Assembly: GCA_003990765.1 (NCBI GenBank)
Contig: RBNJ01000020.1
Coordinates: 1-52,583, forward strand
DNA length: 52,583 nt
Reading direction: 5' to 3'
Origin: Jimgerdemannia flammicorona
Taxonomy: Eukaryota
In this document: positions 1 through 51,676 of the stretch, piece by piece
Numbering within the stretch: position 1 is the stretch's first letter
How the letters are laid out: each line of letters opens with the position of its first letter
Translations under genes and position numbers: made by a program
Notes under the pieces: generated by a model
What the model was told of the DNA's origin: nothing
The model's input: only the letters and a program-made list of their open reading frames with translations
Databases searched by the model: none

Positions 1-205
1 AATTGATTATTATAATTTAATCATCACTACTATGGCAAAAAAAACTTACTAAATAATATAAAGTAATCAAGTTTAATACAAAAGAACTTATTTTGAATAT
101 CAGTATATATCAGAACTCAATATTTGTAATAATTGAATAAGTACTAATACTTGCTATAATATATAGATATAATAATTTCACAGTCATATTTTAGTCTGAA
201 TATAT

Positions 206-4279: not shown

Positions 4280-4605
4280 TTGCCCCCTCTGGGGTCTCGC
4301 GCTCACTCCGGGGTCTCGGCCTTACTCTGCTCCCCTCTGCTGCCTTCGGCCCCTCACTTTGCTCGGGCTCGCTGTGGCTCGCTCTGTTTTGGCCTCACCC
4401 CTCACTTGTGCTCATCCCTCTGGGGTCTGTGGATGTTTTTTAATCTCAATTTGGATTTGTTTTGTTTGTGTTTGTTTGTGATTTTTATCCTGCAACTGGG
4501 ATTGGCTCCCCCTTTATCTCTGCCTATCTCCGGCGGTCATGTGGTTCCTAATTCAGTTCGCCCCGAGTTGTGGTGTATCCTCCCTTTTGGGACATTGTAT
4601 TTTGT

Positions 4606-4612
4606 ATATAAG
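4606..4612 (+). promoter_or_regulatory. Putative TATA box in the pLTR
   Basis: TATATAA about 85 nt upstream of the ORF1 ATG (4696), present in the full-length pLTR copies. Confidence 0.45.
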
Positions 4613-4695
4613 GACTGTGTTTTTACATGGTAATAAATGGCTGATGCATTTTCAGTTATATTCTTTGTTCATCCCCCTTATATATGCTTTTCCAC

Positions 4696-5887: not shown

Positions 5888-5952
5888 ACTTCCCCCTGTC
5901 GTAGTTCTCCTCCAGTTTTCCCGTCCCTTCTCGGATTCTGTCGTCACTTCTG

Positions 5953-25796: not shown

Positions 25797-28700
25797 CTAG
25801 TTGTTCAAGAAATCATATTCCTGAACTAGGTCAGTAGCATTCTGGAGATTGGTCTTGGGTTCCCAGGTTGCATCGTGGATTGGGTAACCTTTCCATTTGA
25901 CAAGGTACTCAGGGTGGTTCTTATTGCTATGTTTGTTGAGGATTTGTTCAACTTCATACTCTTCTTGGTCATTAATAATGACAGGTGCAGGTGGTTTGGT
26001 GGTCCAGTTTGGAAATAGCTCATCATTATTCTCATTATATCGCTTGAGACATTGGACATTAAAGACTGGATGAATCTTAATGGTATCTGGTAGCACCAAT
26101 TTGTAGAAGATTGGAGAGACTTATGCAATGACTTCAAATGGTCCAATGAACTTGCTGTTCAGCTTTGTAGATGGTCTGTGCTTGAGGTTGTCAACTCAGT
26201 ATCCTCTGATGTCTAGTAGAACTTTTTCTCCAATATCAAAAGTTTCTTCTTGGCAGTGTTGGTTAACATACTGTGATTGTTGTTCTTGAGCTTGTGATAA
26301 ATTCTTGATAGCAATCTGGCTTAAATTGCATATTCAGAGTAAGAATTCTTCAATGGCTTCGACTGTGGAGGGTTCTTCAGTGGTTCAGATAAGTGTCAAA
26401 GGGGTGTTTGGATTTTGTCCAGTGTTGGCGAAGAATGGAGTCATTCCAAGAGAGGCTTGCTTGCTATCGTTGTAGGCAAACTCAACTGCAGTGAGGTGTT
26501 CATGCCAGTCATTTTGTCTGTAGAAAACATAGTTCCTTAGTATTTGTTCCAGAGTTCGATTCATTCTTTCAGTTTGACCATCAGTTTCTGGGTGAAAGGC
26601 TGTGGATAGTGCAAGTTTTGTTCCAAGGTATGCATAGAGGGCTTTCTAAAAGTGGCTGGTGAATTTCAGATCTCAGTCACTAACAATGATCTTAGGGAGA
26701 CCATGATAGCAGAAGATGTTGTCAAACAAGAGTGTGGCTATGTCTGGTGCTGTTGCAGTAGTGGTAGTAGGTACAAAGTGGGCTTGTTTGCTGAGATAGT
26801 CCACAAAGACAACAATTGCATCTTTTCCATTCTTGGTTTGGAGTAGTTGTACAATAAAGTCCATAGAGATTTGTTCCCAATTTGCGGATGGTACTGGGAT
26901 AGGGTGGAGTAAGCCGGGTTTTGCTAGTGTTGAGGACTTGTTCCATTGGCAGGCATCACAGAAAGTGATGTAGGTTTTGAGCTGATCTGCCATGTGGGGC
27001 CAATAGAAGTTCTGGGAGATAACTTCATAGCATTTGTCAAATCCTAAATGTCCAGCTGTAGGGGCATTATGACATTTGAATAGGATAGTCCTTCGGAGGT
27101 CTCAGTTGTTTGGAACATACAATCTGTCCTTATAGTAGATAGCATTGTCCTTGAGTTAGTATTGATTGTACCGGGTATGCTTGTCAGCATCATCATAGTT
27201 CAGGATTTCTCAGAGTGCTTGAGCTTCCTTATCATTAGCACATGCTGTGATAATTTGTTCCATGATGGAGTTTGTAACCAAGGTAAGAGTTTAGATAATC
27301 TCTTCAATTGGCAGTCTGGAGATTGCATTGGCAACAATATTTTTCTTGCCAGGGTGGTACTGGATTTCGTAGTCAAAGTTGGTGAGGACTTTCATCCATC
27401 TGGCTTGCTTTCGGGAAAGGGTAGCCTGTGTCTTGATGTTGACTAATGACTTGTAGTCAGTCAATACAGTGAAGTGTGCTCCTTCTAGATATGTATGGTT
27501 GCCATTTGATCAGAGTGTCTACAATAGCTAGCATTTCCTTCTTGTGAGTTGTATAGTTGATTTCGGCATCATTGAACTTGCAGGAGTGATAGACCACAGG
27601 GTGTCCTTCTTGCATGAGCACTGCTCCAAGAGCTAGGTCAGAGGCATCAGTAGTGACTTCATATAATAGGGCAGGGTTTGCCGCTTGAAGTACTGGTGTG
27701 GTTATCAGGGTATCTTTCAGTACTTGAAAGGCAGTATCTTGCTCGTGTCCCCAATTTACAAGATTGTTGAAGTCTTTCTCTTATTTCATGGTCCAGGGTT
27801 GTTCTTGTTTCTTGCTGTGCTTGGTCATTTGGGTGAGGGCAGTAGCGATTTTAGCAAAGTTGGCAACAAATCACCTGTAATAGTTTGCTAATCCCAGGAA
27901 TGACTGGAGGTCTTTCAGCTTCTTCAGTCTGGGCCAATCTTTGATTGCAGAGATTTTGCTGGAGTCCACTTTGATTTCATTTAGAGTGACAATGTGTCCA
28001 AGAAATTGAATTTCTTTCAGGAGAAATTTGCACTTGCTGAGTTTTGCAAAGAGTCAGTTTTCTCGGAGTTTCAGTAGTACTAGTTCAAGGTGTTCAATAT
28101 GTTCCTCCAGGGTTTTGCTAAAGACTAGGATGTCGTCAATAAGACAATGATGAATTTGTCTAGGTATGGATGCAGAATGGTATTCATCAGTGTCTGGAAG
28201 GTTGCTGGAGCATTAGTTAAGCCAAAGGGCATAACCAGGAACTCAAAGTATCCATAGCAAGTTCAGAAAGCTGTCTTGTAGATGTCTTCTTCTTTTATGG
28301 CAATTTGCCAGTAACCATTTTGTAGGTCAAAAGAGCTCATGAATTGTGGGTTGGTAAGTCTATCGAATATTTCATTGATTCTTGGTAGTGGGCAACAGTT
28401 CTTGATGGTCTGTTCATTGAGATTACGGTAGTCAATGCACATTCATAGGTCTCTTCCTTTTTTGACAATAAAGAGGACTGGTGCACTATAGAGTGATACA
28501 CTGGGTCTGATGAATCCTTGTTCTAAGAGTTCATCAATTTCTTTCTTGAGTACATCAATTTCTCTCAGAGACATGTGGTAGATTGACTTGAAGACTGGTT
28601 TGGCATCCGGGATGGTCTTGATTGCATGGTCTACTGCTCGTTTGGGGGGTAGGCCTTTCGGGAGCTTCTTTGGAAATATGTCTCAGAATTTCTGGAGTAG

Positions 28701-30931
28701 TGGTCTGACATGGCTGTCAACTTTGGAAAAATCTTCTTCAGAGTTCTCAGGTTCTCCTTTGGATGGTCGGATGGAGATGGCGAAGAGAGGGCATTTCTTG
28801 GCCAATTTCTTGAGTTATAGCTTGTTGATGTGGGTGATCTTTGGTCCAGGTCACTAGAGTTGAGTGGGTCCTTTTCGCCTTGTAGTTTGAAGTTGTGGCA
28901 TCCTTTCTTGATAGTCAGAGAATGGTTTACCCAATCAATCATGAGGTTCTCTTGTTTTAACCATGGAGTCCCAAGGATGATTTTATTGTCAGGAAGTGGT
29001 ATGATTTGGAGGGTAACATGTACTCAGTAGTCGCCAATTTGGAAGGGTAGATTGCAGACTTCTTTGCTAATAACATGTGAGGTTCCATCAGCTATAGCAA
29101 CTGCTTGAGTTTGCTGTACTGGAGAGGTGAAGACCTTGAGTCTATTGGCTGTCTCTTCATTGATGAAGTTGCCTGAGGCACCACTGTCTATCATAATCTT
29201 GACAGGTGCTCCATTGACAAAAGCCTCAAGGGTGAGCAGTTTGTCTAATCTAATGGTGGTGATTTCAGTTGTAGGAGCCTTTCTTCTGTTGGTTCTTCTT
29301 TGAGCCAGTTCATTGACACAAGAGAAGCAATCATCAATCATTCGGAAAGAGTACATTCCAATGCCATGAGAGCATCGGCCACTTGGTATATATCTATCTT
29401 CGATCTTCTTACAGAATTGTTCTTCTTTGCTCATGGTAGGTTGGGCTGGGACTTTGTTTGATGAGCTAAATCCTTTGGATCCTCGGATGGTGGGCAGTAT
29501 TTCAGGGACTTCCTTGACTGTCAGGGTTGACTCGATTTTTTCGAATAGGATCTGGGCAATGCAGAAACCAATAGGGATCTTGAAGGGTGTCCAACTCTGG
29601 TTTCGAATGAGGACAATGATTTCACCCATATAATCTTCGTCAATGACTCCTCTTTCTACTGAGAGTCCTTTCAGTACTAGGCTGCTGCAACAGCATATTC
29701 TTCCAACATGTCCTTCAGGGATTTGGATACTGATTCCTATATATACTTATTTGACTTCTCAGTTGGAAACTGTAGCTTCTTCAGCTACATATAGGTCATA
29801 TCCAGCTGCTTTTTAACTTCCTTTGGTTGGGGCCTTAGTAGTTTGCCTTAACTTGACAAAGTCTAGTATTCTGGTGGTCAGGTTGTTGAGGTGATAAAGA
29901 GTGGTAACAGTTGCTCGTGTTGCTGTTTGGGGTTTTCTGTTAGAGCAGGCACTGGCCATGTGTCCTGTCTTTCAGCAATAGAAGTATACTCCGCTTCTTC
30001 GAAGTTCATTCCTTTCGCCTTCAGTAAGTTTCTTGAAGGTACTGGGCTGGATGGGTTCAGGATTTCTGGGTGTCCAAGAGGTGGATGTGGAGGGAGCTCG
30101 GGATGCTTCATGCTTGGGTTCTTCTTTCTTGGTCCAAGTCTTTTCCTTGTTGTTAAATTGTCTTTGGGGCAGAATTGGTCTGGCTGTTAGGATTTGCTTG
30201 ACCATGGTCTTGATTCTTGCTAGGCACCATTGTTGATGATCATAACCAACTGGGTGGCCTTGTTCTTGGATTTTTCTAGTAAGCCATTCAGGTAGTGCAT
30301 CAAATAAATGGTCTGCTCTTATACTATTTCATACTTCATCATTAGTGATATATCCTAGGCCAACAGTGTTCAGGAGTGACTCGAGTTTTGTACAGAAGGT
30401 TTCGAATTCTTCTTTGCCATATACATCGAATTTGAGGTTGCGGAGTTTTACTCGAGATTCAGCAATCATGGTTTCGCTGTGGTATTGAGCAATCATAAGT
30501 TGTTTAAGTCCAGGGGCTGCAGGATGGGCTCTGTATCCTGGGGCATTATTTGCTGCATTCTGGGCAATTACTGCAGGTCGGGTATCCCATGTGAGGGGTT
30601 TTTCAGGAAGGGTTCGCCACCATTCTTCGGCAGGTCCTCGGAAGAATGTAACAACTCAGCGGACATAGGCTGTAGTGGTAGCAAAGAGTTGTTCCAGAGT
30701 GTGGTCTTGATTGTTTGTCAGAACGCGGTCAGCAACTCACTCATTAGTCCATTGATTGGCTTCGAAGTTGGTATCAACTATACTAATGAAGCTTTGGACT
30801 TCTTGTGCAGTACCATTGAAGGTAGGTAGGCTCAGATTTTTGGTAGGTTGGGTCTGTTCAGCTAAGGCAGTAATGGTTGCTGCCATTATGGCTATCTGGG
30901 CTGTAAGGTCTAGAATCTGTTGGTTTGCCAT
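25797..30931 (-). pseudogene. Element C gag-pol: gag (CCHC) - dUTPase - PR - RT - RNase H - integrase - chromodomain
   Basis: LPTFNG; YFYC.KTGHMASAC; AAGYDL...GVIDEDYMGEI...RGSKGF (~29460-29870); [46 protein letters not shown]...YLVKWKGYPIHDATWEP. Confidence 0.93.
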
Positions 30932-33666: not shown

Positions 33667-34689
33667 GTTTGTGTATTTGGAAGTTATGGTTGTTGTTTGT
33701 TTTAGTTCTCTGATTCGACACATCTTGGTGCTCGGTATATGTGTATTTGGTCCTGATTAGTAAGATTCTGTTTGTGTAAACCTTGTGTTCTGTAACTTCG
33801 TATTGACTCAGCTTTGTGTGCTGTGACTTCGGTTTGACTCAGCTTCATGATCAAACAGGTGATTTCAGTGGCTTGTTCAGAGGGTGACGTGTAATTTCAG
33901 TGGCTTGGAGGTTGTGCGCTTACATAGCTAGTTATAGAACCTTTGGAATATTATAGAATTCTATTAGTCATTTTTGCTGAGAATCTATTTCTTGGCTTTT
34001 CTCTTCTTTTCTAAGATCCTTCTGGATCTTTCTTCCAGATCTTATATAAATATCCTTATTCTCTGCTTAAATAAAGATCAGAATATTTTCTCTCAGAATT
34101 TCTTTGAGAATACTTGAACCTACAAGTATCTCTTTGAGCTACTTTAGGCTCACCAGAATTATCAGTCTTAGCTACTTCCTCTTAAAGAAACTAGAACTAT
34201 TATACTTAGTAGCAGTGATATCATTGTATCTTGTCTTATTAAGAAATCTTACATGAATTCAGAAATTAGTCACAACTAGTTACATAAGCTCAAAATGAAC
34301 TATGAAAAACTAGTTTATCATTTAGACCTCTCTGTTATAGAAGAAGCAGATAGTATAGAACTACAAGTCAATCTGAAGAAAATAATTACCACTATGGCCT
34401 ATCAAATTTGACAACTTTAAGTATGAATAAACTATTAAAAAACAAAGACCATAGCTATATTATATCCTATTGCTATACTAGTTAGCTTTAAATTACTTAA
34501 GCCAGATATCTTTAATGATCACTGAGGAGGACTGACCACAGATGTATGGATCTTTCAGTTGAACTCACAAGAATAGAAGAAGACATATAAGTCCAATTCA
34601 CTACTATTGCTCTGAACAAATGGAGTTGATTGGATGATATTTGATTCAGATTCATCATGTGATGGATTTGAATCAACTCAGATTGGTCT

Positions 34690-34795
34690 TGTGATCTGAT
34701 CCAGATTGATCCATCTAGATTGATCTATCTAGATTGATCTATCCAGATTGATCCATCTGGATTGATCCATCTGGATTGATCCATCTGGATTGAAA
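34690..34795. repeat. hAT subterminal 14-bp repeats (GATTGATCCATCTG)
   Basis: About 6 tandem copies; mirrored at ~50510-50590. Confidence 0.8.
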
Positions 34796-34930
34796 TCTTT
34801 GGTGACATCATCCTTTCTTTTATTTATTTTACTCTTATTTTTTTTTCCTGTTGCACTTTGGTGACATCACCCTTTCCTTTTGTTCCCTCTCTTTTCTTTA
34901 TTCTTTTTCTTTGTTCTTTCCTACCATATC

Positions 34931-36997
34931 ATGAGCAAACAAAACAGCAGCTCTTAATTTGTATGTTGGTCTAGTCTACTCATTTTTTATCCTGCAATAA
35001 TCATCAAAAGAGAGAGTATTTGAGGTAGAAATACACTCTCTGCTGACAATGTTAGATTTTTTCTCATATGGGCAATATACAAGCTGCTCATTGAGAGCCA
35101 AAGAGGTGACAGCAGTGGTGATGGTGATGGTAATAGTGATAGTAATGGTGATGGTAGGGATGAGGGTGAATTCTGGCAACAACTTATGGTGGTCCTTCAG
35201 ACCTCAGAATTTACAGACCTCACAGCTATATATGTAGCAGCCTTTTTGAAGCAGCCAGTAGTAGATATAGGTTACTCTTTTCTGCCACTACTTTTTACTT
35301 ATTTAAATTTCCCCAGTATGACCTGATTCACCTTATACTCTTCTTAGGGTCCACAGCTCTATGGCAAGATCTGCTGACTTTATTCACAATATCTAGTTAA
35401 GATGAAGAAAGGTTGAAGGATGTTGTGGGGCATACCTTTGGTGGCTGAACTGTTGAGTCAATGTATCACATAGCAGAGATCTCAAAAGGAACAAAAGCAA
35501 GCCTTTATGAGCAATCTTGTACAACTCATGCAACTCATTGGCATATAACTCATCAGTATACAGCTCACTCACTCATACTCTTTTTCTGAAATATCCATCA
35601 CTATATTTTATTTAATTTCATTTTTTATGTGGTCTCTCCCTAAAAAATACCCACACCTATATACAACCTGCTTGTATGCAACTCATCTACACATAACCCA
35701 TCTGCATGCAACCTGTCCATATACAACCCATCTACATACTTATCTTAGTCCCTCAGATCAGAGCTCAGTTCTATTGGAAAGGAGAGTTCAAAGTTATCCA
35801 AGTTTAATCACATCTGGCATCTGATCAAATAGAGAAATTTGAGGGCAAGATGTTCAGCATGAGCAGTACCAGCATTGTTATCAAGGCTTGGGAGTCTATA
35901 TTCAAATCAGAGCCAATCATTCTTGACCAAGAGGTCCATTGGTCAGCAGGAGTAACCAATGACAGAGAGAACCATATCTTTATTAACAAATACAAAGAGG
36001 TAGTTGTGATGGTGATAAGGAACCTCTATAGTAATAAGCTTCGCTGCCATATCAATGAGATTTGCGAGAATTGTGTCAAATATCAGATGGCAGGAAGAGG
36101 GGGCGAAAAAAGCAAGGAGGGGGGGTTTGGATGGAAATTGGGTATACTTCAATACTGGCAAAGGGTGGGTTCTGGAGTTCTGAAATCCCCCGCACTCATC
36201 TCTCTTTTTTTTTTTTCTCTTCCCTAGATAAATCACACTCTTTACTGATATACTCTTTTTGATACAATTCCAGAGATACATAAGATTCTGTATCTCTACT
36301 GGAACTTTAGAAGTGCTGTTGAAGAGCAAACTGCATGCAAGCATGACATGGCCTGTATGGTGATGGCGGCTATGATCTGGGGTTCTTTGAGCAGATTGGT
36401 AGAGCATATGGCAGGTCAGCTTGGTAGTGATCTCAGTATGGCTGTACATATATTCTTGGTGCAATTTAGTATACTGTATGAGGTGAAAAGCTTTACTTTT
36501 TTGGGGTGCTGCAGCCTGGGGGGTTTCTGTGGCCCAAGGGGTTTCTGTGGCCCAGGGGGTTTCTGTCCCCCTACATGTAAAAAGGACTGACCAGTTGCCA
36601 TCCATTTTGGCAGGTTTCCAAGCCAGAGCTCCTGGGGCTGAACCAAGGGCAAGCATCCACCAGCACAGCCTGGTAGTATGAGGTTCTGGACCAAGGGTTC
36701 ACCCAACTGTATACTTGTATCACATTAGGATATGTTGGGTGCAATATTTCTCTGCCCATACACACAGACAACAATGTCACCCCAGTAATGTTTTATATCC
36801 TGGAAAGGAAGGGCCCAACCTGGGAAGATAGTGGAGGAGTCTGGTACAACCTCACCTATAGTTTTGGGGTCCTGTTTGTGGCCAACATGGCCATCCTCTT
36901 CCAATCACATGACCATCACGACACTGTCACCTTTGAGAAGAGCTTGGATATAACAGTCATCATACTCACAACAGATAATAGACTCATCAAGCCCTGA
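34931..36997 (+). pseudogene. Spliced hAT passenger gene; last exon TET/JBP-like 2OG-Fe(II) dioxygenase
   Basis: About 5 exons with G(T/C)-AG introns (approx. 34931-35267, 35318-35496, 35757-36141, 36228-36482, 36614-36997). The last exon reads ...GCNISLPIHTDNN...SGGVWYNLTYSFGVLFVANMAILFQSHDHHDT, with HxD at 36761-36769 and a distal His at 36917-36919. Confidence 0.6.
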
Positions 36998-37229
36998 GAC
37001 TGGTGAGTAGAGCAGTTTTTGTGAGAGTTAGGCAATCTTTCATGAGAGGTAGGCAGTCTTTCATAAGGGTTAGGTAGTTATTTTGTGTAAGTTGAGCAGT
37101 CTTATGTGGGGGGTTGGGCCAGGTACTTCTTCTGTAGCACTATCTTAGCTGTTATGCAGGGCCCTACTAGCCCCTTGGCCCATGGGACCCAAACTGGTGA
37201 TGGGGCCTAAATCTGTAGTAGACTTCGAC

Positions 37230-38045
37230 TACTGGAAGTACTCTCTGATCACCAGAAATGCCCTCCGACCACCAGAAGCACCCTCTGACTACCAGAAGCA
37301 CCCTCTGCCCCAGACTCCTTAGTGGCTTGGGACTGCCCTTATACTGCTGGTAGAGGGTTACAAATTTTACACACTCTCTCTGCCTGCCCTGCCTATCCTG
37401 GATACTTGCAGCTTGGGGCTGTCTCTTGCTGCTGGTGGAGGGCTGCAAATTTTGCATGCTCCCTTGCCAACCCCATGCCCACCAACCCCACTGACTGATC
37501 CCACCCACTGACCCAGATGCTGACAGCTTGGGGCTGCCTCTTGCTGCTGGCAGAGGGCTGCAAATTTTGCATGCTCCTTCTGTCTGCCCCATCTGTCCTG
37601 AATACTTACAGCTTGGGGCTGCCCCTTGCTGCCAGCAGAGAGCTACAAATTTTGCGCACTCTCTCTGCTGACCCTATACCCACTAACCCTGCTGACTGAC
37701 TCTGCCCACTGACCTGGGTGCTGACAGCTTGGGGCTACCTCTTGCTACTAGTGAAGGACTGCAAGTTTTGCACACTCCCTCCACCAATCCCCCCTCTGCC
37801 AACCCTCCCTCTGCCAACCCCCCCTCTGTCAACCCCCCTGACTGAGACACTTGTTGCTTAGGGCTGCCCCTTGCTACTGGCAGAGAGCTGCAAATTTTGT
37901 GTGCTCCCTCCACTGACCCTGCACCCACCCACTAACCTGCCCACCAACCTGGGCACTGATAGCTTGGGGCTGTCCCTTGCTGCTAGTGGAGGGCCACAAA
38001 CATTGCATGCTCTCTCTGCCACTACCACCAACCCCACCAACCACT
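37230..38045. repeat. Internal GC-rich repeat block: ~21-bp units, then 5-6 units of ~80-125 bp with core GCTTGGGGCTGCCCCTTGCTGC...GCAAATTTTG
   Basis: Visible tandem units; the counterpart in copy 2 (~47290-48040) has different copy numbers. Confidence 0.85.
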
Positions 38046-38172
38046 GTCCACTTGGACCACAAACTCTGGGCCAAGTTCTCAGGGTTTTTTACCTTTTTAT
38101 TATTTTTGAAAGGTATTAAATATTCTACAAGACCAACCAACTTATCTGTAAACCCCCAGAACCTACCGAATT

Positions 38173-40775
38173 TTAGTGGCCCAAGCCCCACTAAGACTTC
38201 AGACACATATACACCTGGATTGTCTCAGCATTCAGTGCACATCTCTTTGGGGCAATGAGGTCCACCCCACCTGAGAATACTCACTTGATGGGAGCACTAG
38301 AGGCAGGAATTGCCAGGTAGTCCCAAGCTATACCACACAGGCTGGGGAAGTCTATTTGATATAGCTACATGCCCCAGTGGGTAGAGCAGTGGTTAGATTA
38401 GTCGATTAAATTGGCCCAATGCCCATCTGACAACCCACCTTCCACCAGTTGAGCATCTCCACACCCTCCAGCAGGATCACACGATCACTGATGAGGTAAA
38501 TGATAAGTTCATCTATTGATGACAGCTCTTCCACTAATGGCTCCCTCTTCCTCTTTCTGCTGAAGTAAATGTGAGACAGAAGGGATCTCTCAGCATATTC
38601 ATCCAGACTTCAGCCAGAACCTTGTAGTGGTATATAGTTTTTCTGATATACTTTGATTATGGCCTACTTGGTTCTCTCAATGAAGTACTGCTCCCAGCCC
38701 TGATCTTTATGGTATTATAGCTTTAAGTGTAGGTCCAGCACTGTTTGAAGAAAAGAAAAGAGTGAGTTTTTGTGGGGGTTTCTCTGTTTTGGAAGAGGCA
38801 ATGGCCATATGTTAATATCGACATATCTGTACTGATTGAGTATATGGTAGTATCTGTTTGAGAGTAGTACTTTCTGAGCTTGCTAAGAGTAACCTCCATG
38901 GCATCTCTCTGATCCAGACTCAATCATAAATTACTACAATTCTCCAGCCTGTCCTCAAGCTTGTCTTCTAGCCAGTCAATCAGAAGGTTGTATACTGGTA
39001 TTGCTGAGCTTATTGTTAGGGTCGTTTGTTTGACTATATCCTTCATACAATTATCAAAACACTGGCAGTTATATGTGGTGAGGTGTTGCATTGTATGGAG
39101 GCAGACAAAATGAGTATAGAGGCTGACAAAATGAGTGTAGAGCCAGAGCAATCACCACTTACTTCCAAAACTCTGACAACATTCCTAAGTATGTCCCACT
39201 CACTTTCACCTAGAGCCTCAGTCCATATTTCCTTATCAGCAGTCACTGTTGAATCTATTGGCTTTTTTTGTTTTTTGTTTTTTTTAAAATAAATCTTCAA
39301 TTATCCAAAACAAGTTGCTTTAGCCAACTGAAGAAAAAAAGGACACATACTACAGCAAACTCCAGCATGTACTAGATCATTGCAAATTTTGAGTTCCAAT
39401 ATATACAGATGTCCAATATAAGCTCTTTTGGGGCTAAACTGATTGCCCTACACTGCATAGTGAATTTGTCTCATTATTGTGGGAATGATCAGACTGATAC
39501 AACTAGTTTGTGCAGCTTGGAAATTATACTCAGGGCCCCTCCTCTCTTGGATGTTTTGTCTATGTGTGTAAGATAGTCCTGAATAGCGAGGTTCAGTACA
39601 TGGACCTGGCATTGTACATGGTAGCTTTCTGCACTGAAGGCCATGTTTTCCTGTTTGAGGCTGGCTGCTAAAACTTTGAAAAATGTTGAGTTATTTGTAG
39701 TATTGTCTGTCATAATGGCTAAAATCTGTACTTGAAATATTCAGTTGACAAATTTATATGAAAATAAATAACTAATAAAATCTGGTTTATTTTAAGACTT
39801 CTCTCAAAATATTGACCTAATGGCAAGCCCCCCTTTTTTTACCTTGGTTGTAATCCCAAGCTCCTGGATATAACTAATAAAAGCCTGCAATGTTGTCTCT
39901 AGAATGAGGGCCAGCAAGTTTGATAAAGTCAAGGATGAGAGATTTAAGCTGCCAATCAAGGTCAATCCAATGACTGGTAATGCCCAGAAATGAAATTGCA
40001 TTGAGAGATATCCATGTGTTGATTATAAACGAAATTTTGTCTGCCAAATTCTGCTTATTGAATGTGAGGTTAAATTAGTGAGCTCTTTTATATAATTTAG
40101 CTTACAAAGGTCATGGTGCTGCCCTTATTTTATCTGAAGTATCTGGTGGAGATTATCATGCTCCTTTCTATAGGCCTCCAGGATATCTTTACAAATAGTA
40201 TCAGTATTTGGCAAATATAAATCATGCTTGAGGAGACCAAAGATACTATGCAATTGATCACTCTTGATGGTTGTGAATGGCTGGTCTGTATATACAATCC
40301 AGTGAATGAGCTGATTTCGAAATTCTACTAAAGAGTATGGCTAAATATTTTTGATTAAATGGCATTATTGGTACAGAAATGGTTAGGCAATCAGATAAAC
40401 ATACCCACTACAGCTTGGATGTCAATTTTATTTGTCTCTATGTTCTTTTTAATTTTGTTAGAGTACTTATCTTTTATGTGTTGATTCATGTTCGAAGTTG
40501 TACTACCAAGCATTTTGAACTTCTGGCTGGTGCAGTTTATGGAGGTAGATGAAACAATATCATGTATGTGTCAAAACAAAAAGTGTCAATAAGTGTATCT
40601 TAATTTTTTACCTGCAATAATTACAAACAACATCATCTCCTATCTTAGCACAATGTTGCCAGATTTCAGAGTGAGGATTGCATGGAAGGTGTGAAACTAT
40701 CAGAGATGTTTAACTTGAAGCATCATCAGTACTGTGAACTGTTGAAGACTGATCTGTCGATATGTGTGTTTGCAT
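38173..40775 (-). pseudogene. hAT transposase, multi-intron, degenerate
   Basis: BED finger (SEIWQH...CNYC...STTSNMNQH); DTW.SLN..SFLGITSHWID; MTDNTTN; CQVHVLNLA; WNS; C-terminal dimerisation domain WWK...FPSL...DYLAIPASSAP...FS. Confidence 0.92.
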
Positions 40776-40859
40776 GTTTGCATGTGCATGTGTATGCATG
40801 TGTATATTGTATATGCATGTGTATGTATTGTGTTGTAGACACATCTGGTATATAAGTCA

Positions 40860-41200
40860 TGTGGAGGATTTGGATTGGAGGATTTGGTTGAAGGATTTGG
40901 ATGAGGATTCAGATTGAAGGATTCAAATTGGAGGATTCAAATTAGAGAATTCAAATTGGAGAATTCAAATTGGAGGATTTGGATTGAGTAATTCAGATTG
41001 AGTGATTCAGATTGAGTGATTTGAATTGAGTGATTCAGATTGAGTAATTCGGATTGGGGTGGTTCAGATGGGTGATTCAGATGGGGTAATTTGGATGGGG
41101 TAATTCAGATTAATCTGAGTTGATTCAGATGGCTTCAGATTTGAGATTCAGATCAAACCATCATATGATGAATCAAATCTGGATTTGATTTGAATTGACT
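40860..41200. repeat. hAT 5' subterminal repeats (GATTCAAATTGGAG / GATTCAGATTGAGT, ~14 bp)
   Basis: Many degenerate tandem copies; mirrored at 42930-43295. Confidence 0.85.
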
Positions 41201-43364
41201 TATTCAGAGCACTATTCACTACTATACTTCTCTGAGAGAATGTAGTTATTTAGTAATATAATCATATTATGACTACTACTATCTATTTGAATACAAGAAT
41301 CCAAGATTGGAAATTCTTCAAAAAGGCCCTTCACTAGCAGTTTAAGTCTACTAATGCTACTAAGCTAGCCTGAGATAAGCTAGCAAATATCAAGCAACTC
41401 AAGTCTATATAAAGTTATAATATATAATTTCTGTCAATTTTACTTAAACTATCAGTAATATCTAAAGATAAAAAGATAGACTATTATATCTGAGGCCTAG
41501 AAGGAAATACATAAGTCAAGGTCAAGTTAGAAGAGTTACAGACCCTTAATAAAGCTATATATGAGAATTACTAATAGGTTTGATATTATCATTTTTGGTA
41601 ACTACTTTAAGTCAGAGTACTATAAGAAGAACTATTTTGAGAACTATTATAAGAACTAACTCAAAGCAGTTGATCTAGCAGTAGATCTAGATATGTATAA
41701 TAAATAAGAAAAATACTAAGTTTACTTCAGAAGAAAAGAAATATCTGAAGAAATTAGAGCTTATTTCTTCTATTACTAAATAGAATACATTACAACCAAA
41801 TATCCTAAGAGGACCAGTAAATCTTCAAGATCAGTTACTATATTATCTAAAGATATACTTATTAACTCCACTACTAGTTAATCTAAACTCAAAATTAAGA
41901 AGCTTTATTCAAAGGCTCAGATTTCTCAATATTAATTAGAAGGAGTCATTGGTCTTGACCTATACTCTATCAAGTAAGTCACTATTTTAGCTAAAGACTA
42001 AACTCTAATATCTACTGGAATTGTAGTTCAATGTTCTAAAGGATATTATATCAGAATTGTACTATAATCAGGACTTAGTATCAAATATCATTTAGATATT
42101 AGTACTAGTATCATTAATTCAGACTATTGAGAACAAGTTTAAGTCTTACTTATTAATTAAAAAGATTGATTAAAGAAGAAGACCAAGTCACACAAATGAT
42201 CCTAAAAAAAGCCAGTTAATCTAAGATTACAGAAGTCTAAGAGCTATCTAAAACTAAGTGAGATCAAAAAGGTTTTAATAGTACTGATTAAGCAGTAAGT
42301 CTTACTGAAAATTAAGCTCAAGCTATGCTCATTTTCAAAGATCTAGTTAAAGAAAAAGAAGTTCAAGTACTCATAGACAATAGAGCTATGGAAAACTTCA
42401 TTAACTAGAACCTCATCAAAAACCTCAAGATCCTCACTAAGCCTATACTCCAAGAATGATAGTATAGTAACTATAGATAGTATACTATATCCTATTGAGT
42501 CAATTGCAGCCAAACTATTTATCAAGATTCAGAAATATTAAGAATGAGTAAACTTCAAGGTTACACTACTAGAAGATCATGATTTGATCTTAGAAAAACT
42601 CTAGCTTACTAAATACAATCCAAATATTAATTGATGCAAAAATGAAGTTACTCTACTTTAAGAAAGAGTCAATATTACTATCAAGATAGACAAGTTTATG
42701 AACAAACCCCAGATTGTAATACTCTCAACAATATAGTATAAGAAAGTACTCAAGAAGACAGTACATATCTTTGTTGTAATTGTCTATCTCAAGAAATAAG
42801 ACAAAAAGCTATCTGGTCTACCCCATATATAAGAAGTTGATTACAAAATTAAACTGATACCAGAAGCTATACTATCTAAGAAATATATATACTATATATC
42901 ACCTCTCAAGATTAGTGCTCTGAATGAGTCAATTTGAATCAAATCCAGATTTAATTCATCACATAACAGTTTGATCCAAATCTCAAATCTGAAGCTATCT
43001 GAATCAAATTGGATTAATCTGAATCACTTCATCTGAATTACTCCATCCAAATTACTCATCTGAATCACTCTATCCAAACTACCCTATCCAAACCACTCAA
43101 TTCAAATCACTTAATTTGAATCACTTAATCCAAATTACTTAATCCAAATCACTCAATCTGAATCACTCAATCTGAATCCTCCAATTTGAATTCTCCAATT
43201 TGAATCCTCCAATTCAAATCCTCCAATTTGAATTCTTCAATCTGAATCCTCATCCAAATCCTTCAACTGAATCCTCTAATTCAAATCCTCCACATGACTC
43301 ATATGCTGGACATATCCACATATACAATATATATATATATAAACATATATATGTACATGCAAAC

Positions 43365-46300
43365 ATGCAAACATACATATCAACAGATCAGTCTTCAATA
43401 GTTCACAGTACTAATGATGCTTCAAGTCAAACATCTCTGATAGTTCCACACTTTCTATACAATTCTTACTCCAAAATCTAGTAATATTATACTAAGATAG
43501 GAAATAATATTATTTATAATTATTGCAGGTAAAAAATTAAGATGCATCTATTAATATAACTGATACTTTTGTTTGATATACATATGATACTATTTCATCC
43601 ATCCCCATAAACTGCACCAGCCAGAAGTTCAAAATGCTTAGTGGTACAACTTTGAACATATATTAATATATAAAAGACAAGTACTCTAACAAAATCAAAA
43701 AGAACATAGAGATAAATAAAATTGATATCCAAGCTGTAGTGGGTACAACCATCTGATTGTCTGATCATTTCTATACTAATAACTCTGTTTAATCAAAAAT
43801 ATTTAGCCATACTCTTCAGCAGAATTTCGAAATTGGCTCATTTGCTGAATTGTATGCACAGACCAGCTATTTACAACTATCAAGAGTGATTAATTATATA
43901 GTATCTTTTGGCCTCCTCAAGCATGATTTATATTTACCAAGTACCAATATTATTCACAAAGATATCCTGGAGACCTATAGGAAGGAGCATAACATCATCA
44001 GATACTTCAGGTAAAATAAGAGCAGTACTATAACCTTTGCAAGCTGAATTATATATATTTTTTTATAAAGAGCTCACCAATGTAATCTTACTTTTTTTTT
44101 TTTTTTTTTTTTTTTTTCTACACTTATTTATTCCAAACATAGTTATATAGTGAACAGTGGAAAAACATTCTCCAGATTACCTGACAAGAAAGTAAGTGGG
44201 GTCAGACCCTAAAAAGAGTAGCCTCAGACTACCCGATACCTAACCTTAGCAAAGCCAAGATAGCCAGGGCCTGGTTCTCTCTGCCCTAAGCTGCTCCCAC
44301 CCCCCTCTCTCTGCTAATAACAATGCCTTACCAAGACCACAACCAGCCCCCTCATACAAATAATATATATAATGTAGAGAAATAAAACAGCATGCAGGCC
44401 TGATAAATTCCCAACCATGAGTTACTCTACCTCACCTTGGCTGCCTTGTATCAGCCTATATACTTAATGAATGGGTCTATCATCCAACTGCTGCTCTCTC
44501 TGCCCAACTTTGAGTTAGAAGTCACTATCTGGTTTGTGACACCAGTACCTCAAGTGACACTGCCATCATACCTGGTCTTACCTTAAAGGACTGCTGGATG
44601 CGACCCCAGTACCTCAAGTACTCCTATAGCATTTATCTGACCTACCAGCTCCTCCCTCTCCAAAGTGGCAAGTAGTTACCCTGCTGATCTCCCTGCTGAT
44701 CATCACACCATCACCAGCCAATTACTTGGCCCAATCATCACTATCATCTTGAATCACACCATCCTATATCTACCAATTACTAGTTGCCATCACTATATGC
44801 ATTGAGATCATCTCATCCACCTTAGTCAATCATCAGCTATATCTTCTAAAATTCTCTGAGCCCCTTCCGAAATCACCTAGTACACCTCTACACCTTGAGG
44901 ATACAGTGAGAGTCTCTCCCCTGAGTGCCTAAGGGCCTGACCCATTTCCCCCAGTCTGCTAGAGCACACTAGTAAATCGGATGCTCACTACAAAGTCAGT
45001 CATATTGTTGGATGTAAGACTCCACATCTCCTTGAGATCTTTCCAGTGGCTCCCAGAGCCTACATTGCACCATCTGGCCCACAAAATGATAAACTCTTGA
45101 TTTCTTGGGAAACTGTAGCCTTGAGGTTGGGGTAACTCAACACTATTAGACTTCTCTTCTCTTACCACTTCTAGTACACCCAACCTCAGGGCACTAATGG
45201 CTCCCCTTCTCCTGCACTATAGAGATCTAATTTCCACTCAGACCTTTTGACCAGTATAGTTTGAGAGAAAGAGGTCCCAATGTAACCTTATATTCAATAA
45301 GCAGAATTTAGCAGGAAAAATTTTGTTTATAATTGATACATGGACATTCTCCAATGTAATTTCATTTCTGGGTATTACTAGTCATTAGATTGACCTTGAT
45401 TGGTAGCTTAAATCTCTCACCCTTAATTTTGTCAAACTTGCTAGTTCACATTCTGGAAACAATATCATAGATACTTTTATTAGTTGTATCTGGAAGCTTG
45501 GGATCACAACCAAGGTAAAAAAGAAGAGCTTGCCATTAAGTCAACATTTTGAGAGAGATCCTAAAACAAAACAGATTTTATTGGTTATTTATTTTTGTAT
45601 AAATTTGCTGACCAAATATTTCAAGTACAGATTTTGGCCATTATAATACTATAAACAACTCAATATTTTTTCAAGTTTTAGCAACCAGTCTCAAATAAGA
45701 AAATGTAGCCTTTAGTACAGAAAGCTGTCATATATAATACCAGGCCCATATACTAAACCTCACTATTCAGGACTATCATATATATATAGACAAAATATCT
45801 GAGAGAGGAGGGGCCCTGAGTATAATTTTCAAGCTATGCAAACTGGTTGTATTGATCTGATCATCTCCACAATGATGAGACAAATTTGCTGTACAGTGTA
45901 GAGTAATCAGTTTAGCCCCAAAAGAGCTTATATTGGATATCTGTACACATTGGAACTCAACATTTATAATGATCCAGCATGTGCTGGAGTTTGCTGTAGT
46001 ATGCATCCTTTTTTTCTTCAGTTGGCTGAAGTAACTTATTTCAGATAATTGAAGATTTTTTTTTTTTTAAAAAAAAAAAAAACAAAAAAAGCCAATAGAT
46101 TCAACAGTAACTATTGATAAGGAAATATGGGGCAAGGCTCTAAGTGAAAGCAAGTGGGACATACTTAGGAATACTATTAGAGTTTTAGAAGTAAGTAGTG
46201 ATTGCTCTGACTTTATACTTATTTTGTCTATCTCTGCACAATGCAATACCTCACTACATATAACTACCAGTGTTTTGACAATTATATAAAGGATTTAGTC

Positions 46301-47150
46301 AAACAAATGATCTCAACAATAAGCTCTACAATACCAGTATATAATCTTCTGATTGATTGGCTAGAGAATAAGCTTGAGGACAGACTAGAGGGTTGTAGTG
46401 ATTTATAGTTAAGCCCAGATCAGAGAGATACCATAGAGATTACTCTAAGTAAGCTCAGAAAATACTACTTCAAAACAGATACCACTATATACTCAATCAG
46501 TATAGATATGTCAGTATGTGACCATTGTCCCTTCCAAAATAGATAAACTCCTACAAAAACTCACTTTCTTTTCTCTGAATAGTACTAGACCTATGCTTAA
46601 AGCTACAATATCATAAATATCAGGGCTGAGAGCAGTACTTCATTAAGAGAACCAAGTAGGCTGTAATCGAAGTATACTAGAAAAACTATATGCCACTGCA
46701 AGGTTCTGGCTGAAGTCTAGATGAATATGCTAAGGGATCCCACCTGTTCTATATTTACTTCAGTAGAAAGAAGAAGAGAGAGCTATCAGTGGAAGAGCTG
46801 CCATCAATAGACAAACTTATCATTTACTTTATCAGCAACCATATGATTCTGCTGGAGGGTGTAGAGGTACTTAACTGGTAGAAGGTGGGTTGTCAGGTGG
46901 GTGTTGGGCCAATTTAACCTACCAATCTAACCACTGCTCTATCTACTGGGGCATGCAACTGCATCAAATGGACTTCTCCAGCCTATATAGTATGGCTTAG
47001 GACTACTTGGCAATTCCTGCCTCTAGTACTCTCATTGAGTGAGTATTCTCAGATAGGGTGGACCTTGTTGCCCCAAAGAAGTATATGCTGAATGCTGAGA
47101 CAATTCAGATGTATATGTATCTGAAGTCTTGGTGGGACTTAGGCTACTAA
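43365..47150 (+). pseudogene. hAT transposase, copy 2
   Basis: Collinear reverse complement of 38173-40775, interrupted at 44092-45276. Confidence 0.9.
44092..45276 (-). mobile_element. 5'-truncated non-LTR retroposon (LINE-like 3' end)
   Basis: 26-nt poly(T) at 44092-44117; AATAAA complement at ~44126; ~15-bp TSD CCAATGTAA(T/C)CTTA(C/T) at 44077-44091 and 45277-45291; absent from hAT copy 1. No protein domain confidently recognised. Confidence 0.8.
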
Positions 47151-48300
47151 AATTTGATAGATCCTGGGGGTTCATAGATAAGTTGGTTAGCCTTAAGGAA
47201 TATTTAATACCTTTAAAAATAAAAGGAAAAAAAACCTGAAGACTCAGCCTGGAGTTTGTAGTCTAAGTGAAACAGTAGTTAGTAGGATTGATAGTGGCAG
47301 AGAGAGCATGCAAAATTTATAGTCCTCTGTCAGCAACAAGGGGCAGCTCCAAGCTGTCAGTGTCCCAAGCTATCAGTGTTCAGATCAGTGAGCAGGTCAG
47401 TGGGCATGGAGTTGGTAGAGAGAGCATGCAAAATTTACAGCCCTTCACTGGTAGCAAGGGGCAGCCCCAAGCTGCAAATGTCCAGGACAGAGAGATTGGT
47501 AGAGGGGGGGGGGGTAGGTGGAGGGAGCATGCAAAATTTGTGGCCCTCTACCAGCAGCAAGGAGTAGCCCCAAGCTATCAGTGCCCAGATCAGTGGGTGG
47601 AGTTGGTTGATAAAGTCAGTAAGTATGGAGTTGGTGAAGAGAATGCACAAAATTTTTAGCTCTTTGCTGATAGCAAGGAGCAGCCCCAAGCCACAAGTAT
47701 CTGGGACAGGTGGGACAGGTGGAGGGAGCATACAAAATTTGTAATACCAGTAGCATAGAGCTCCCCCCAGTAGTCTGTGTCCAGGCTGGGGTCAGCAGGG
47801 TTGGCAGAGGGAGTGTACAAAATTTGCAGCCCTCTAGGGATAGCCCCAAGCTACCAAGAAGTCTGAGTCTAGATCAGAGAGTGCTTCTGGCAGTCAGAGG
47901 GTACTTCTGGTGGTCAGAGGATACTTCTAGTAGTCAGAGGACATTTCCAGTGATCAAAGGATACTTCTGGTAGTCAGAGGGTACTTCTGGCAGTTGGAGG
48001 ACATTTCCAGTGATTAGAGGATACTTCTGGTAGTCGAAGTCCACCACAGATTTGGGCCCCATTACTGGTTTGGGTCCTATGGACACCCTGGCCCTGCACT
48101 ACAGTACCACATCAGTAGCACTATAAGAGCAGGGCCAAGGAGCTGATAGGGCCCAGTATAATGGCTAAACTAGTACTACAGAAGAGGTGCTTAGCTACTA
48201 GCCCAACCCACACAAAATAACTACCAAACTCTCATAAAAGATTGCCTAACCCTTATGAAAGATTGCCTAACCCTCACAAAAACTGCTCCACCTGCTAGTC

Positions 48301-50347
48301 TCAGGCCTTAATAAGTCTGTTATCTATTGTGAGTATAACAACTGTTGTATCTGAGCTCTCCTCAAAGGTGATGGTACCATAGTAGTCATGTGGTTGGAAT
48401 AGAACAGCTATATTGGCTACAAATGGGACCCTGAAACCATAGGTGAGGTTATACCAGACTCTGCTGCTATCCTTCTAGATTGGGCCCTTTCTTTCTGGAA
48501 TATAGAATATTACTGAGATGATGTTATTGTCTGTGTGTATGGATAGAGAAATATTTCACCTAACATATCCTGATATAACATGAGTGTATAGTTGGGTGAA
48601 CTCTTGGCCCAGGACCTCATACTGCCAGACTGTACTGGTAGATATCTGCTCTTGATCCAGCCCCAAGAGCCTTGACTTGGAAATCTGTCAGACAGATGAC
48701 ATTCAGTCAGTCCTTTTTGCATATAGGGGGCAGAAACTCTCTGGGCTGCAGCACCCAAAAAAAGCAGAGCTCCTCACCTCATATGATATGCTAAATTGTG
48801 CTAAGAATATATATACAGCTGTGCTAAGATCACCATCAAGCTGGCTTATCATATGCTCTACCAATCTGCTCAAAGAACCCCAGATCATAGCTACTATTAC
48901 CATATAGGCTGTATTATACTTGCTCATAGTTTGCTCTTTGACAGTACTTCTAAAGTTCTGGTAGGGGTACAGAATCTTGTGTATCTCTAGAATTGTGTCA
49001 AAAAGATTATGTCAGCAAAGAGTGTGATTATCTGGGGAGAAGTAAAAAAAAGAGAGATAAGTGTGAGAGATTTCAGAACTCTGGAACCCACTCTTTGCCA
49101 GTATTATAGTATACTCAATTTCCATCCAAACCCTCTCTCCTTACTTTTTTCACCCCCTCTTTTCTGCCATCTGGTATTTGATACAATCCTCACAAACCTC
49201 ATTGATGTGGCAGTAAAGCTTGTTGCTATAGAGATTCCTTACCACCATCGCAATCATCTCTCTGTATTTATTAATAATAATATAGTTCTTTTCATCATTG
49301 GTTACTCCTACTGGCCAATAGACCCCTTGGTCAAGAATGATTGGCTCTGATTTAAATATAGACCCCCAAGCCTTGATGATAATACTAGTACTGCTTATGC
49401 TGAACATATTGTCCTTGAATTTCTCTATTTGATCAGACATTAGATATGGTTAAACTCAAGTAACTTTAAACTCTCCTTTTCAATAAAACTGAGCCCTGAT
49501 CTGAGAGACTGAGATAAGTATACAGATGGGTTACATATGGATAGATTGCATGTAGATAGGTTGCATACAGATGAGTTGTATATGGGCAAGTTACATGTAG
49601 ACAGGTTGCATGTAGATGTGGGTGTTTTTAGGAGGAAACTATATAAAAAATGAAGTTAAATAAAATACAGAGATGGATATTTTAGAAAAAGAGTATGAGT
49701 GAGTAAGTGAGTGAGTTGCATGCCAACAAGTTATATGCTGATAAGTTGCATGAGTTATATAAGATTGCTCATGAAGGCTTACTTCTGTTCCTTTTTAGAC
49801 CTCTGCTACTCAATGCATTAACTCAATAGCTCAGCCACCAAAGATATACTCTGCAATGTCTGTCAGCCTTTCTTCATCTTGACCAGATATTGCAAATAAA
49901 GTCAGCAGATCTTGCCATAGAGCTGCAGACCCTAAGAAAAGTATGAGGTGAATTGGATCATACTGGGGAAATTTAAATAAACACAAGTGAATAAGTAGTG
50001 GCAGAGTGAGCAATCTACATCTACTATTGGCTGCTCCAAAAAGGCTGCTATATATATAGCTATGAGGTCTGTAAATTCCAAGATCTGAAGGACTACCATG
50101 AGTTGTTGTTGGAATTCTCTCTCATCCCCATCATTACCACTGCTATTGCTATCACCATCACCACTACTATTGCCCCTTTGGCTCTTGATGAGCAGCTTGT
50201 ATACTGCCCATATGAGAAAAAAATTAATATTGTCAGTAGAGAATGTGTTTTCACCTCAAATACTCTCTCTTTTAATAATTATTGCAGAGTAAAAAATGAA
50301 TAGACTGGACCAATGTACAATTAAGAGCTGCTGCTTTTTTTACTTAT
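48301..50347 (-). pseudogene. hAT passenger gene copy 2 (TET/JBP-like)
   Basis: Reads ISLSIHTDNN...WYNLTYGFRVPFVANIAVLFQPHDYYGT. HxD at 48529-48537; the His-to-Tyr changes are C-to-T. Confidence 0.58.
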
Positions 50348-51676
50348 AATACAATAGGAAAGAAAAAAGAATAAAGAAAAAGAACAAAAAAAGAACAAAA
50401 GAAGAGAGGGAATAAAAGAAAGGGTGATGTCACCAAAGTACAGTAAGAAAAAAAAATAAGAGCAAAAATAAATAAAAGAAAGGATAATATCACCAAAGAT
50501 TTCAATCTGAATAGATCAATCCAGATGAATCAATCTGGATGAATCAATCTAGATAGATCAATCTAGATTAATCTGGATCAATCTGGATCATATCACAAGA
50601 CCAATCTGAATTGATTCAAATCTATCATATGATGAATCTGAATCAAATCTCATCCAGATCAACTCCAACTATTTGGAGCACTACTCAAGATTGAAGTAGT
50701 TAAGAAGGAACTAGAAGAGTTACTTACATGAGAAGCCATTCAATCAAGCAAATCCCCCTATAGCTTACTAGTCTTATTTATTAAGAAGAAGAATAGTATT
50801 TTATGAATATATATAAACTACTAAGTACTCAATAAGCTTATAGTCAAGAACTGATATCTGCTACTCTTAATTAATCAAATTTTTGATACTCTTAAGAATA
50901 CCAAATACTTCATCAAGCTGGACCTTATATTGAGTTATCACTAAATCTGAATTAAGCTAAAAGATATTCTTAAGACTATATTTATGACTTTCTTTAGACT
51001 CTATAAATTTCTAGTCCTAGCATTTAGTCTTATCAATGTATCTGCTATATTCTAGACTCTAATAAATAAGATATTCAAGGACTAACTATATATCTTCTTG
51101 TTGGTATATCTTGACAATATTCTGATCTTTAGTATAACTAAAGAAGAATACCTTAAGCACATCTGAGTAGTTCTAGAAATATTATAAAAATATAAACTTT
51201 ATATAAAGCTTAAGAAATATAAATTCTTTAAAGAATAAGTTAAATATCTTAGCCACATTATCTCTATACAAGGAATTCAAATAGATCTATATAAGATAGA
51301 GATAATTCAAGAATAGTTTATTCTATTGAACTCTAGTCCTTTCTTGGTCTAGCTAGCTACTATTATTACTTTATCAGAAACTTTTCTAATATTACTAAGT
51401 CACTAACTAACCTCATGAGGAAGGCCCCTCACTCTGATCACTATATATCCTATATCTGGAACTTCTTTTGTCAACAAGCCTTTCAAGAACTTCTTTTTAT
51501 TTTATTATTTTATAAGTTATATATTATATCTGGCTATCTACCTTAGTGATTCTATCCTTTATTTATTTATTTCTATAGGTTATTATTATATTTAACTATC
51601 TGTCCTAACAATTATATCTCTCTTTTATTTTTATTTTATTTTAATGGAAGTTATATATTATTGTCTGGCAATCTAT

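Follow-up and report, generated by a model that had tools for sequence, protein, structure and literature searches.

In basidiomycetes, genes for TET/JBP dioxygenases are reportedly linked to Kyakuja-Dileera-Zisupton and Plavaka transposons, a connection credited to work by Iyer et al. in 2014. The locus described here lies on contig RBNJ01000020.1 of Jimgerdemannia flammicorona (NCBI GenBank assembly GCA_003990765.1), and the window, meaning the whole stretch of 52,583 nucleotides that was analyzed (positions 1 to 52,583, forward strand), holds two decayed, inverted copies of a hAT element, each with a passenger gene next to the transposase. This gene has homologs in metagenomes and is probably a divergent, outlying member of the TET/JBP group of dioxygenases. 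As with the Kyakuja-Dileera-Zisupton and Plavaka elements, the cargo would be a DNA-base dioxygenase with a proposed anti-silencing role, although the transposase superfamily is different.

The closest described systems come from a survey of transposon-borne TET genes (Kojima, 2025; Biology 14:1741, PMC12730594). This survey reports TET genes in 11 DNA-transposon lineages and places TET-carrying transposons in three fungal lineages; among them are 20 hAT families with a TET gene, found in six Puccinia species and named hAT7 for their duplications of 7 bp (PMC12730594). In three of the hAT7 families, the TET gene is described as upstream, with both it and the transposase in one orientation. The rust-type (PU) TET proteins were recognized only via HHpred, their closest solved structures being CMD1, CcTET, NgTet1, and human TET2, and an anti-silencing function of transposon TET genes is Kojima’s proposal, noted in the survey as not experimentally validated (PMC12730594). 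A preliminary description of the present stretch, made from its letters alone, had stated that TET genes were not known from hAT elements, a statement that the 20 Puccinia families make outdated. A literature search found no further papers on hAT-borne TET genes beyond Kojima (2025). The hAT-borne TET-like gene of J. flammicorona is a further divergent example of the kind described in 2025, not the first.

The Puccinia hAT7 elements and those of the window are alike in being autonomous hAT transposons of CpG-methylating, fungal-type genomes in which the transposase is accompanied by a TET/JBP-like gene of great divergence, and in both cases profile-profile methods are needed to recognize that gene. 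They differ in several respects. The Puccinia elements have 7-bp duplications, whereas both window copies have 8-bp ones and lack this hAT7 trait. In the three hAT7 families described, the TET gene is upstream and in the same orientation as the transposase, whereas the two genes of the window converge. The gene family of the window has no Arg at the canonical R-x-S position. Finally, relatives of the window gene are found on AT-rich contigs with normal CpG content.

Two Copies of a hAT Element

Self-BLAST identified one element in two inverted copies, at 34605-41214 (+) and 42913-50683 (-), which are 76-81% identical (about 78% overall) and homologous end to end. Copy A begins with TATTGCTCTGAAC and its right end, read as the reverse complement, is TAGTGCTCTGAAT; the element termini have the form TAGTGCTCTGAAT...CTA (TAG..CTA inverted ends), with 11 of the 13 terminal bases complementary in each copy. 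The flanking target-site duplications, TTCACTAC for copy A and CTCAAGAT for copy B, are exact and 8 bp each. Their length is 8 bp and not 7 because the eighth base differs between the copies yet is repeated on both sides, which assigns it to the target rather than to the element. The hAT dimerization domain (PF05699) was detected in read-through translations of copy A (26.5 bits) and copy B (30.1 bits), in both cases above the Pfam cut-off of 21.4. No Pfam match to the RNase-H-like DDE core was obtained on decayed frames or read-throughs, and the dimerization domain is the sole recognizable part of the transposase. Taken together, the dimerization domain, the 8-bp duplications, and the TAG..CTA ends support the hAT identity of the element.

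The features of the two copies are as follows.

34597..34604: target-site duplication to the left of copy A, TTCACTAC; same 8-mer at 41215-41222
34605..41214, + strand: hAT element copy A, 6610 bp, from self-BLAST with ends read directly
37217..38042, no strand assigned: internal imperfect direct-repeat block between passenger gene and transposase, from self-matches
38200..40950, - strand: decayed hAT transposase of copy A, upper limit approximate; C-terminal dimerization domain at ~38200-38361
41215..41222: target-site duplication to the right of copy A, TTCACTAC
42905..42912: target-site duplication of copy B, CTCAAGAT; same 8-mer at 50684-50691
42913..50683, - strand: copy B of the hAT element, 7771 bp, in the opposite orientation to copy A
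~46944-47132, + strand: PF05699 match of copy B, 30.1 bits
50684..50691: target-site duplication on the other side of copy B, CTCAAGAT

When the flanks of copy B are joined with a single 8-mer, they align without gaps to a ~69%-identical paralog at ~18.4-18.7 kb, which represents an empty site for the copy B insertion. The DNA around copy B (41223-42904 and 50692-51500) is an older repeat, with a ~69%-identical, hAT-free paralog within 17873-19430; the older-repeat spacer beside copy B has a guanine-plus-cytosine (GC) content of 28% and a CpG observed/expected ratio (o/e) of 0. About 1.17 kb at 44095-45267 is present in copy B, where it breaks up the transposase region, and is missing from copy A. 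The direct repeats of the block at 37217-38042 are units of ~115-200 bp, and the block has a counterpart in both copies.

Structure and Decay of the Passenger Gene

In both copies the passenger gene is convergent (tail-to-tail) with the transposase, and it is divided into three exons:

35850..36164, + strand: first homology-supported exon of copy A, open, with ATG at 35850 and donor GT at 36165; collinear with the N-terminal half of the relative P0004
36165-36227, + strand: intron 1 of copy A
36228..36482, + strand: middle exon of copy A, with one decay stop, TGA 36246-36248
36483-36613, + strand: intron 2 of copy A
36614..37018, + strand: last exon of copy A, with HTD, R-K-G, GG, and HH(D) motifs; end uncertain, ~37030
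48280..49407, - strand: passenger gene of copy B, exons at ~49407-49092, 49031-48778, and 48684-48280

Much of the preliminary description is borne out by this structure. It had reported two hAT copies bounded by target-site duplications, which are confirmed by the exact 8-bp repeats and by PF05699 above cut-off in both, as well as a second, intron-containing gene convergent with the transposase, found here with its three exons in both copies. The last-exon peptide that it quoted is present in both copies, and if C/G is preferred wherever the two copies differ by a transition, their consensus agrees with the earlier one nearly letter for letter. Its boundaries require revision: the gene is there, with homology-supported coding sequence starting at ~35850 and not at 34931, and its last exon starts at 36614 and not at 36677 (the TAG at 36674 being a decayed CAG) and continues beyond the TGA at 36995 as far as 37018 or further. 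The last-exon reading frames as they now stand extend over 36677-36997 in copy A and 48621-48304 in copy B. Homolog support is absent for an upstream frame at 35024-35326. An antisense open frame of 251 codons (35946-36698, -) has no family match and is probably a by-product of composition.

Both copies are damaged, as had also been said. Copy A carries four decay stops in the whole gene, three of them in the last exon (36674, 36995, and 37004); copy B has four stops in the last exon and a frameshift upstream, and its distal His has been replaced by Tyr. The HTD motif is kept in both copies, and the distal motif reads HDHHD in copy A and HDYYG in copy B. The passenger gene is, as judged from these lesions, dead in both copies through CpG decay.

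A Homologous Family From Metagenomes

A search of 1.84 billion representative proteins with a profile built from the last exons of both copies gave six matches at an expectation value (E) <= 0.001, of which five are true relatives: P0001 (E 8e-48), P0002 (3e-24), P0003 (6e-10), P0004 (6e-7), and P0005 (7e-7). The sixth match was rejected as a repeat artefact. P0001 aligns across 36623-37018 of copy A (E 7e-58). P0004 is full-length (374 amino acids) and by tblastn is collinear with both the upstream exons and the last exon of the window gene; used as a query, it recruits a further protein, P0007. A metagenome scan yielded two additional loci, L001 and L002. In the alignment, the PYRNF motif of the middle-exon consensus matches P0007 and L001. 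The L001 gene has three exons, and its second intron lies at the same point as that of the window gene, between ...Y(E) and ...LPxLDGG; its first intron is close to the first intron of the window gene, an equivalence not rigorously established. On these matches, the passenger gene is evidently real and has a true homologous family, every member of which outside the window stems from metagenomes and carries no name.

Five intact, divergent members share 20 invariant columns out of 115, including H283, D285, R298, G300, G307, H335, and G336 (residue numbering of P0004). The positions expected for an H-x-D...H iron-binding triad, H283, D285, and H335, are invariant in all five. The conservation of HxD and the distal His on which the preliminary description relied therefore holds among the intact members, and in the window for HTD in both copies and for the distal His in copy A; it fails at the distal position of copy B, where Tyr is found.

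Other searches for relatives added little. A scan of viral contigs returned no relatives of the passenger family, and tblastn of P0007 against phage genomes returned a chance match to a lysin alone (E 6). In a word-indexed protein search, the last exon found nothing among longer proteins, P0004 added only P0007, and a family alignment (A2) brought nothing new; the decayed window exon had no usable match in a protein atlas.

The relatives are multi-copy, one cluster of them at 90% identity having 28 members, and L002 carries stops. Within the metagenome lineage formed by L001, L002, P0003, P0005, and P0010, some sequences have HVN for HVD and others have stops or frameshifts, giving a mixture of intact and decaying genes. 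The contigs of the relatives are AT-rich without CpG depletion (GC 34%, CpG o/e 1.2). At the end of the L001 contig (3480-3625), GATTTGA-rich repeats have a weak similarity (E 0.04-0.15) to the subterminal repeats that the window element has at either end, which hints that the passenger gene may ride a hAT-like element there too. When L001 and L002 were read through in six frames and searched with Pfam, no transposase was detected beside these relatives.

Similarity to TET/JBP Dioxygenases

The passenger family is similar to Tet_JBP at the profile level. The reference set (A5) consisted of nine phage Tet_JBP proteins, seeded by gp2 of mycobacteriophage Cooper, which matches PF12851 at E 4e-8 and 28.2 bits (below the cut-off of 34.9) and has tblastn relatives in 102 phage records, eight of which, at 22-71% identity, were taken. 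The family alignment (A4) leaves out the upstream-exon rows of the window, the tails of which had been misplaced by MAFFT in an alignment designated A3. With hhalign, A4 and A5 aligned over 107 columns (probability 85.9%, E 5.2e-6, score 48.6), with HtD paired to HrD, eRkG to Rrg, GG to GG, and HGT to HGvT, and with H283, D285, and H335 of the family aligned to H171, D173, and H221 of the phage proteins. The order and spacing of HxD, R-x-G, GG, and H-G-x-T are thus common to the family and to phage Tet_JBP (PF12851, e.g., Cooper gp2), at ~22% identity over the 107 columns.

A local rerun gave a score of 43.2 and a probability of 67%. By comparison, the reversed family profile scored 17.8, and 200 column shuffles had a mean of 14.7 (standard deviation 2.2) and a maximum of 24.3. 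Compared with nine 2OG-FeII_Oxy_3 paralogs from cyanophage P-SSM2, the family scored 22.3 (probability 1.3%), no more than noise, and Tet_JBP against 2OG-FeII_Oxy_3 scored 32.1. When the two window copies were used alone, their HTD strand aligned to the phage HRD strand over 23 columns (E 3.2e-4, probability 39%). In a language-model atlas, the best neighbor of P0004 was a Basidiomycota cluster (0.96, with 211 of 256 features in common), and its 30 neighbors comprised 12 from PF12851, 6 from PF20515, and 12 unnamed, with no other named family. We take PF20515 to be the fungal “Tet-like” family of Pfam.

Several results weigh against membership in the TET/JBP group. With E allowed up to 10, HMMER gave no match to Tet_JBP (PF12851), PF20515, or another relevant family of Pfam, NCBIfam, or PHROGs for the window exons or for their relatives, P0001-P0005 and P0007 included, and no PDB chain was matched by single proteins or profiles at E up to 10. 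This extends to CMD1, CcTET, NgTet1, and TET2, which would be expected to have the same metal triad and to which the passenger family shows no sequence-level match in the PDB. AlphaFold2 models of P0004 (8 alignment rows) and P0007 (11 rows) had predicted local distance difference test (pLDDT) scores of 40.0 and 36.8 and were unusable; Foldseek with the P0004 model against the PDB gave a best E of 0.66, which is noise, and nothing at E <= 0.001. The probability from hhalign reaches 86% rather than >95%, the profiles are shallow (effective number of sequences, Neff, of 1.7), and the control families for hhalign amounted to one, 2OG-FeII_Oxy_3.

The residues after the distal His also differ from those of the phage proteins. 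Phage Tet_JBP has an invariant R-x-S (R236 and S238) at +15 from the distal His, for which the passenger family has no counterpart, having Ser, Gly, Ala, or Val there. An Arg is found instead at +21 (three of five intact members) and at +28 (four of five); copy A of the window has TGA as its +28 codon and copy B has CAG, a pair that reverts to CGG. R298, or the Arg at +21 or +28, may stand in for the canonical Arg that binds 2-oxoglutarate (2OG), or the co-substrate may be a different one. The phage genes further differ in being single-exon genes acting in phage DNA hypermodification, whereas the window gene has three exons.

The TET/JBP reading of the preliminary description comes out of these comparisons with a mixed record. 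Its support comes solely from remote-homology methods, namely the profile-profile comparison with the nine phage proteins (85.9%, E 5.2e-6) and the language-model neighbors, with the reservation that the hhalign probability stays below 95% and falls to 67% in the local rerun. Sequence searches of Pfam, NCBIfam, PHROGs, and the PDB do not; the HMMER comparison with Tet_JBP that had been suggested gave no match at E up to 10, and the suggested structure prediction gave models with pLDDT of 40.0 and 36.8 and, for the first of them, no Foldseek match at E <= 0.001. The earlier caveat that the usual 2OG-binding Arg was not evident stands at the canonical position. We regard the passenger gene as a probable, divergent, and outlying TET/JBP-group dioxygenase, and we go no further than this because the profiles are shallow and a single control family was used.

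Alternative Explanations

The gene might instead encode an oxygenase of the 2OG-Fe(II), double-stranded beta-helix (DSBH) class from outside TET/JBP that does not act on DNA, such as a hydroxylase of metabolites or proteins acquired by capture, and the phage match would then reflect the core shared by the whole superfamily. Such an origin would account for the missing HMMER match to Tet_JBP and for the missing canonical R-x-S at its expected position, and hhalign does align the same core motifs, weakly, to 2OG-FeII_Oxy_3. However, the family scores 43-49 against Tet_JBP, its score of 22 with Oxy_3 is lower than the highest among the 200 shuffles, and it is nearer to Tet_JBP than Tet_JBP itself is to Oxy_3 (32). 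All 18 named clusters among the language-model neighbors are PF20515 or PF12851, and the stretch from HxD to the distal His has an R-x-G and a GG that also belong to the phage Tet_JBP invariants. On balance, we consider a non-TET oxygenase unlikely. It is less probable again that H-x-D...H arose by chance, whether in an accessory protein that is not an enzyme or in decayed sequence that codes for nothing: such short motifs occur often, and neither a family match nor a fold was obtained, but the best homolog reaches E 8e-48, the Asp and the two His fall within the 20 invariant columns out of 115, and the profile-profile score is far above those of the shuffles.

A separate matter is whether the gene contributes to the element. 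It could be a host gene that was transduplicated once, into the element from which both copies descend, and that contributed nothing to the life of that element. The window offers two copies with one ancestor, and P0001, P0002, and P0004 are on short contigs where genomic context is not visible, both of which would be compatible with a one-off capture. However, the relatives are multi-copy and decaying in metagenomes, as seen in the 28-member cluster and in the stops of L002, which is typical of transposon cargo; the GATTTGA-rich end of L001 resembles the subterminal repeats, if weakly; and published rust transposons retain TET genes across many families (PMC12730594). A one-off capture therefore appears quite improbable, and a gene retained as cargo of the element, probably of the TET/JBP group, is the reading that we prefer.

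CpG Decay and Other Features of the Window

The preliminary description had proposed that the repeats of this genome are being eroded by CpG deamination, and the composition of the window agrees with it. This transposable element-dense stretch is strongly depleted of CpG, with an o/e of 0.18 against 0.93 for GpC, and the differences between copies A and B, 819 of them transitions and 120 transversions, follow a CpG-to-TpG/CpA pattern. Where one copy has kept a C, the next base is mostly A, and where one copy has kept a G, the preceding base is mostly T; an ancestral CpG has therefore decayed to TpG in one of the copies and to CpA in its counterpart. Depletion extends to each of the four NCG contexts (o/e 0.08-0.25). 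Hypermutation specific to TCG, which is said to typify Pucciniomycotina, was considered as a pointer to the host as well, and the test was non-discriminating, as the depletion spans every NCG context. A look-up of sequencing runs listed no RNA data set; its one entry was a soil metagenome containing 0.08 of the words, from which no conclusion is drawn.

Elsewhere in the window, a GC-richer block (200-9350; 47-52% GC) has a marked strand asymmetry and is built of ~90%-identical direct and inverted repeats (e.g., 820-3811 vs. 8399-5409), with reverse-transcriptase fragments (RVT_1, under the Pfam cut-off). A dUTPase domain (PF00692) occurs twice in polyprotein remnants of long terminal repeat (LTR) retrotransposons, at 13283-13687 (-; E 3e-20) and at 29027-29746 (-; E 6e-19), the second adjoining an aspartyl protease; an integrase zinc domain lies at 26676-27101. 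Retroelements bearing a dUTPase are known from fungi. Taken by themselves, these LTR elements, the short introns of the passenger gene, and the Basidiomycota neighbors in the language-model atlas would suggest a fungal host, perhaps a rust.

A Possible Role in the Life of the Element

We read the window as holding two old, inverted insertions of one autonomous hAT family, each made with an 8-bp duplication. The ancestral element would have carried the transposase on one strand and a three-exon dioxygenase gene on the other, and in the predicted enzyme the iron would be held by the H-x-D strand together with the distal H-G-[ST]. If the gene resembles the TET genes of other fungal transposons in function, the dioxygenase of an intact element would oxidize 5-methylcytosine on its own DNA or more widely, which would relieve methylation-based silencing and slow C-to-T deamination. 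Both copies have since died, with stops and frameshifts, the loss of the distal His in copy B, and a saturating decay of CpG to TpG and CpA.

A more far-reaching proposal, which we hold to be doubtful, is that the family forms a separate, unrecognized branch of TET/JBP on canonical 8-bp hAT elements, extending beyond the rusts (its relatives lie on AT-rich, fungal-type metagenome contigs without CpG depletion), in which the canonical Arg is replaced and which may use another co-substrate or a different DNA-base chemistry. Another co-substrate or chemistry is proposed because the Arg that canonically binds 2OG is replaced. An example of a changed co-substrate is known from CMD1, the algal TET homolog, which uses vitamin C.

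Transposons that carry their own DNA-demethylating enzyme would present a direct counter to genome defense. To this picture, the window would add an ordinary 8-bp hAT lineage and a gene family too divergent for standard annotation. The presence of relatives on metagenome contigs of normal CpG content suggests that such cargo may be more widespread, and its active sites more varied, than those so far listed. In the window both copies have been ruined by CpG decay, and whatever protection the gene may once have given was not permanent.

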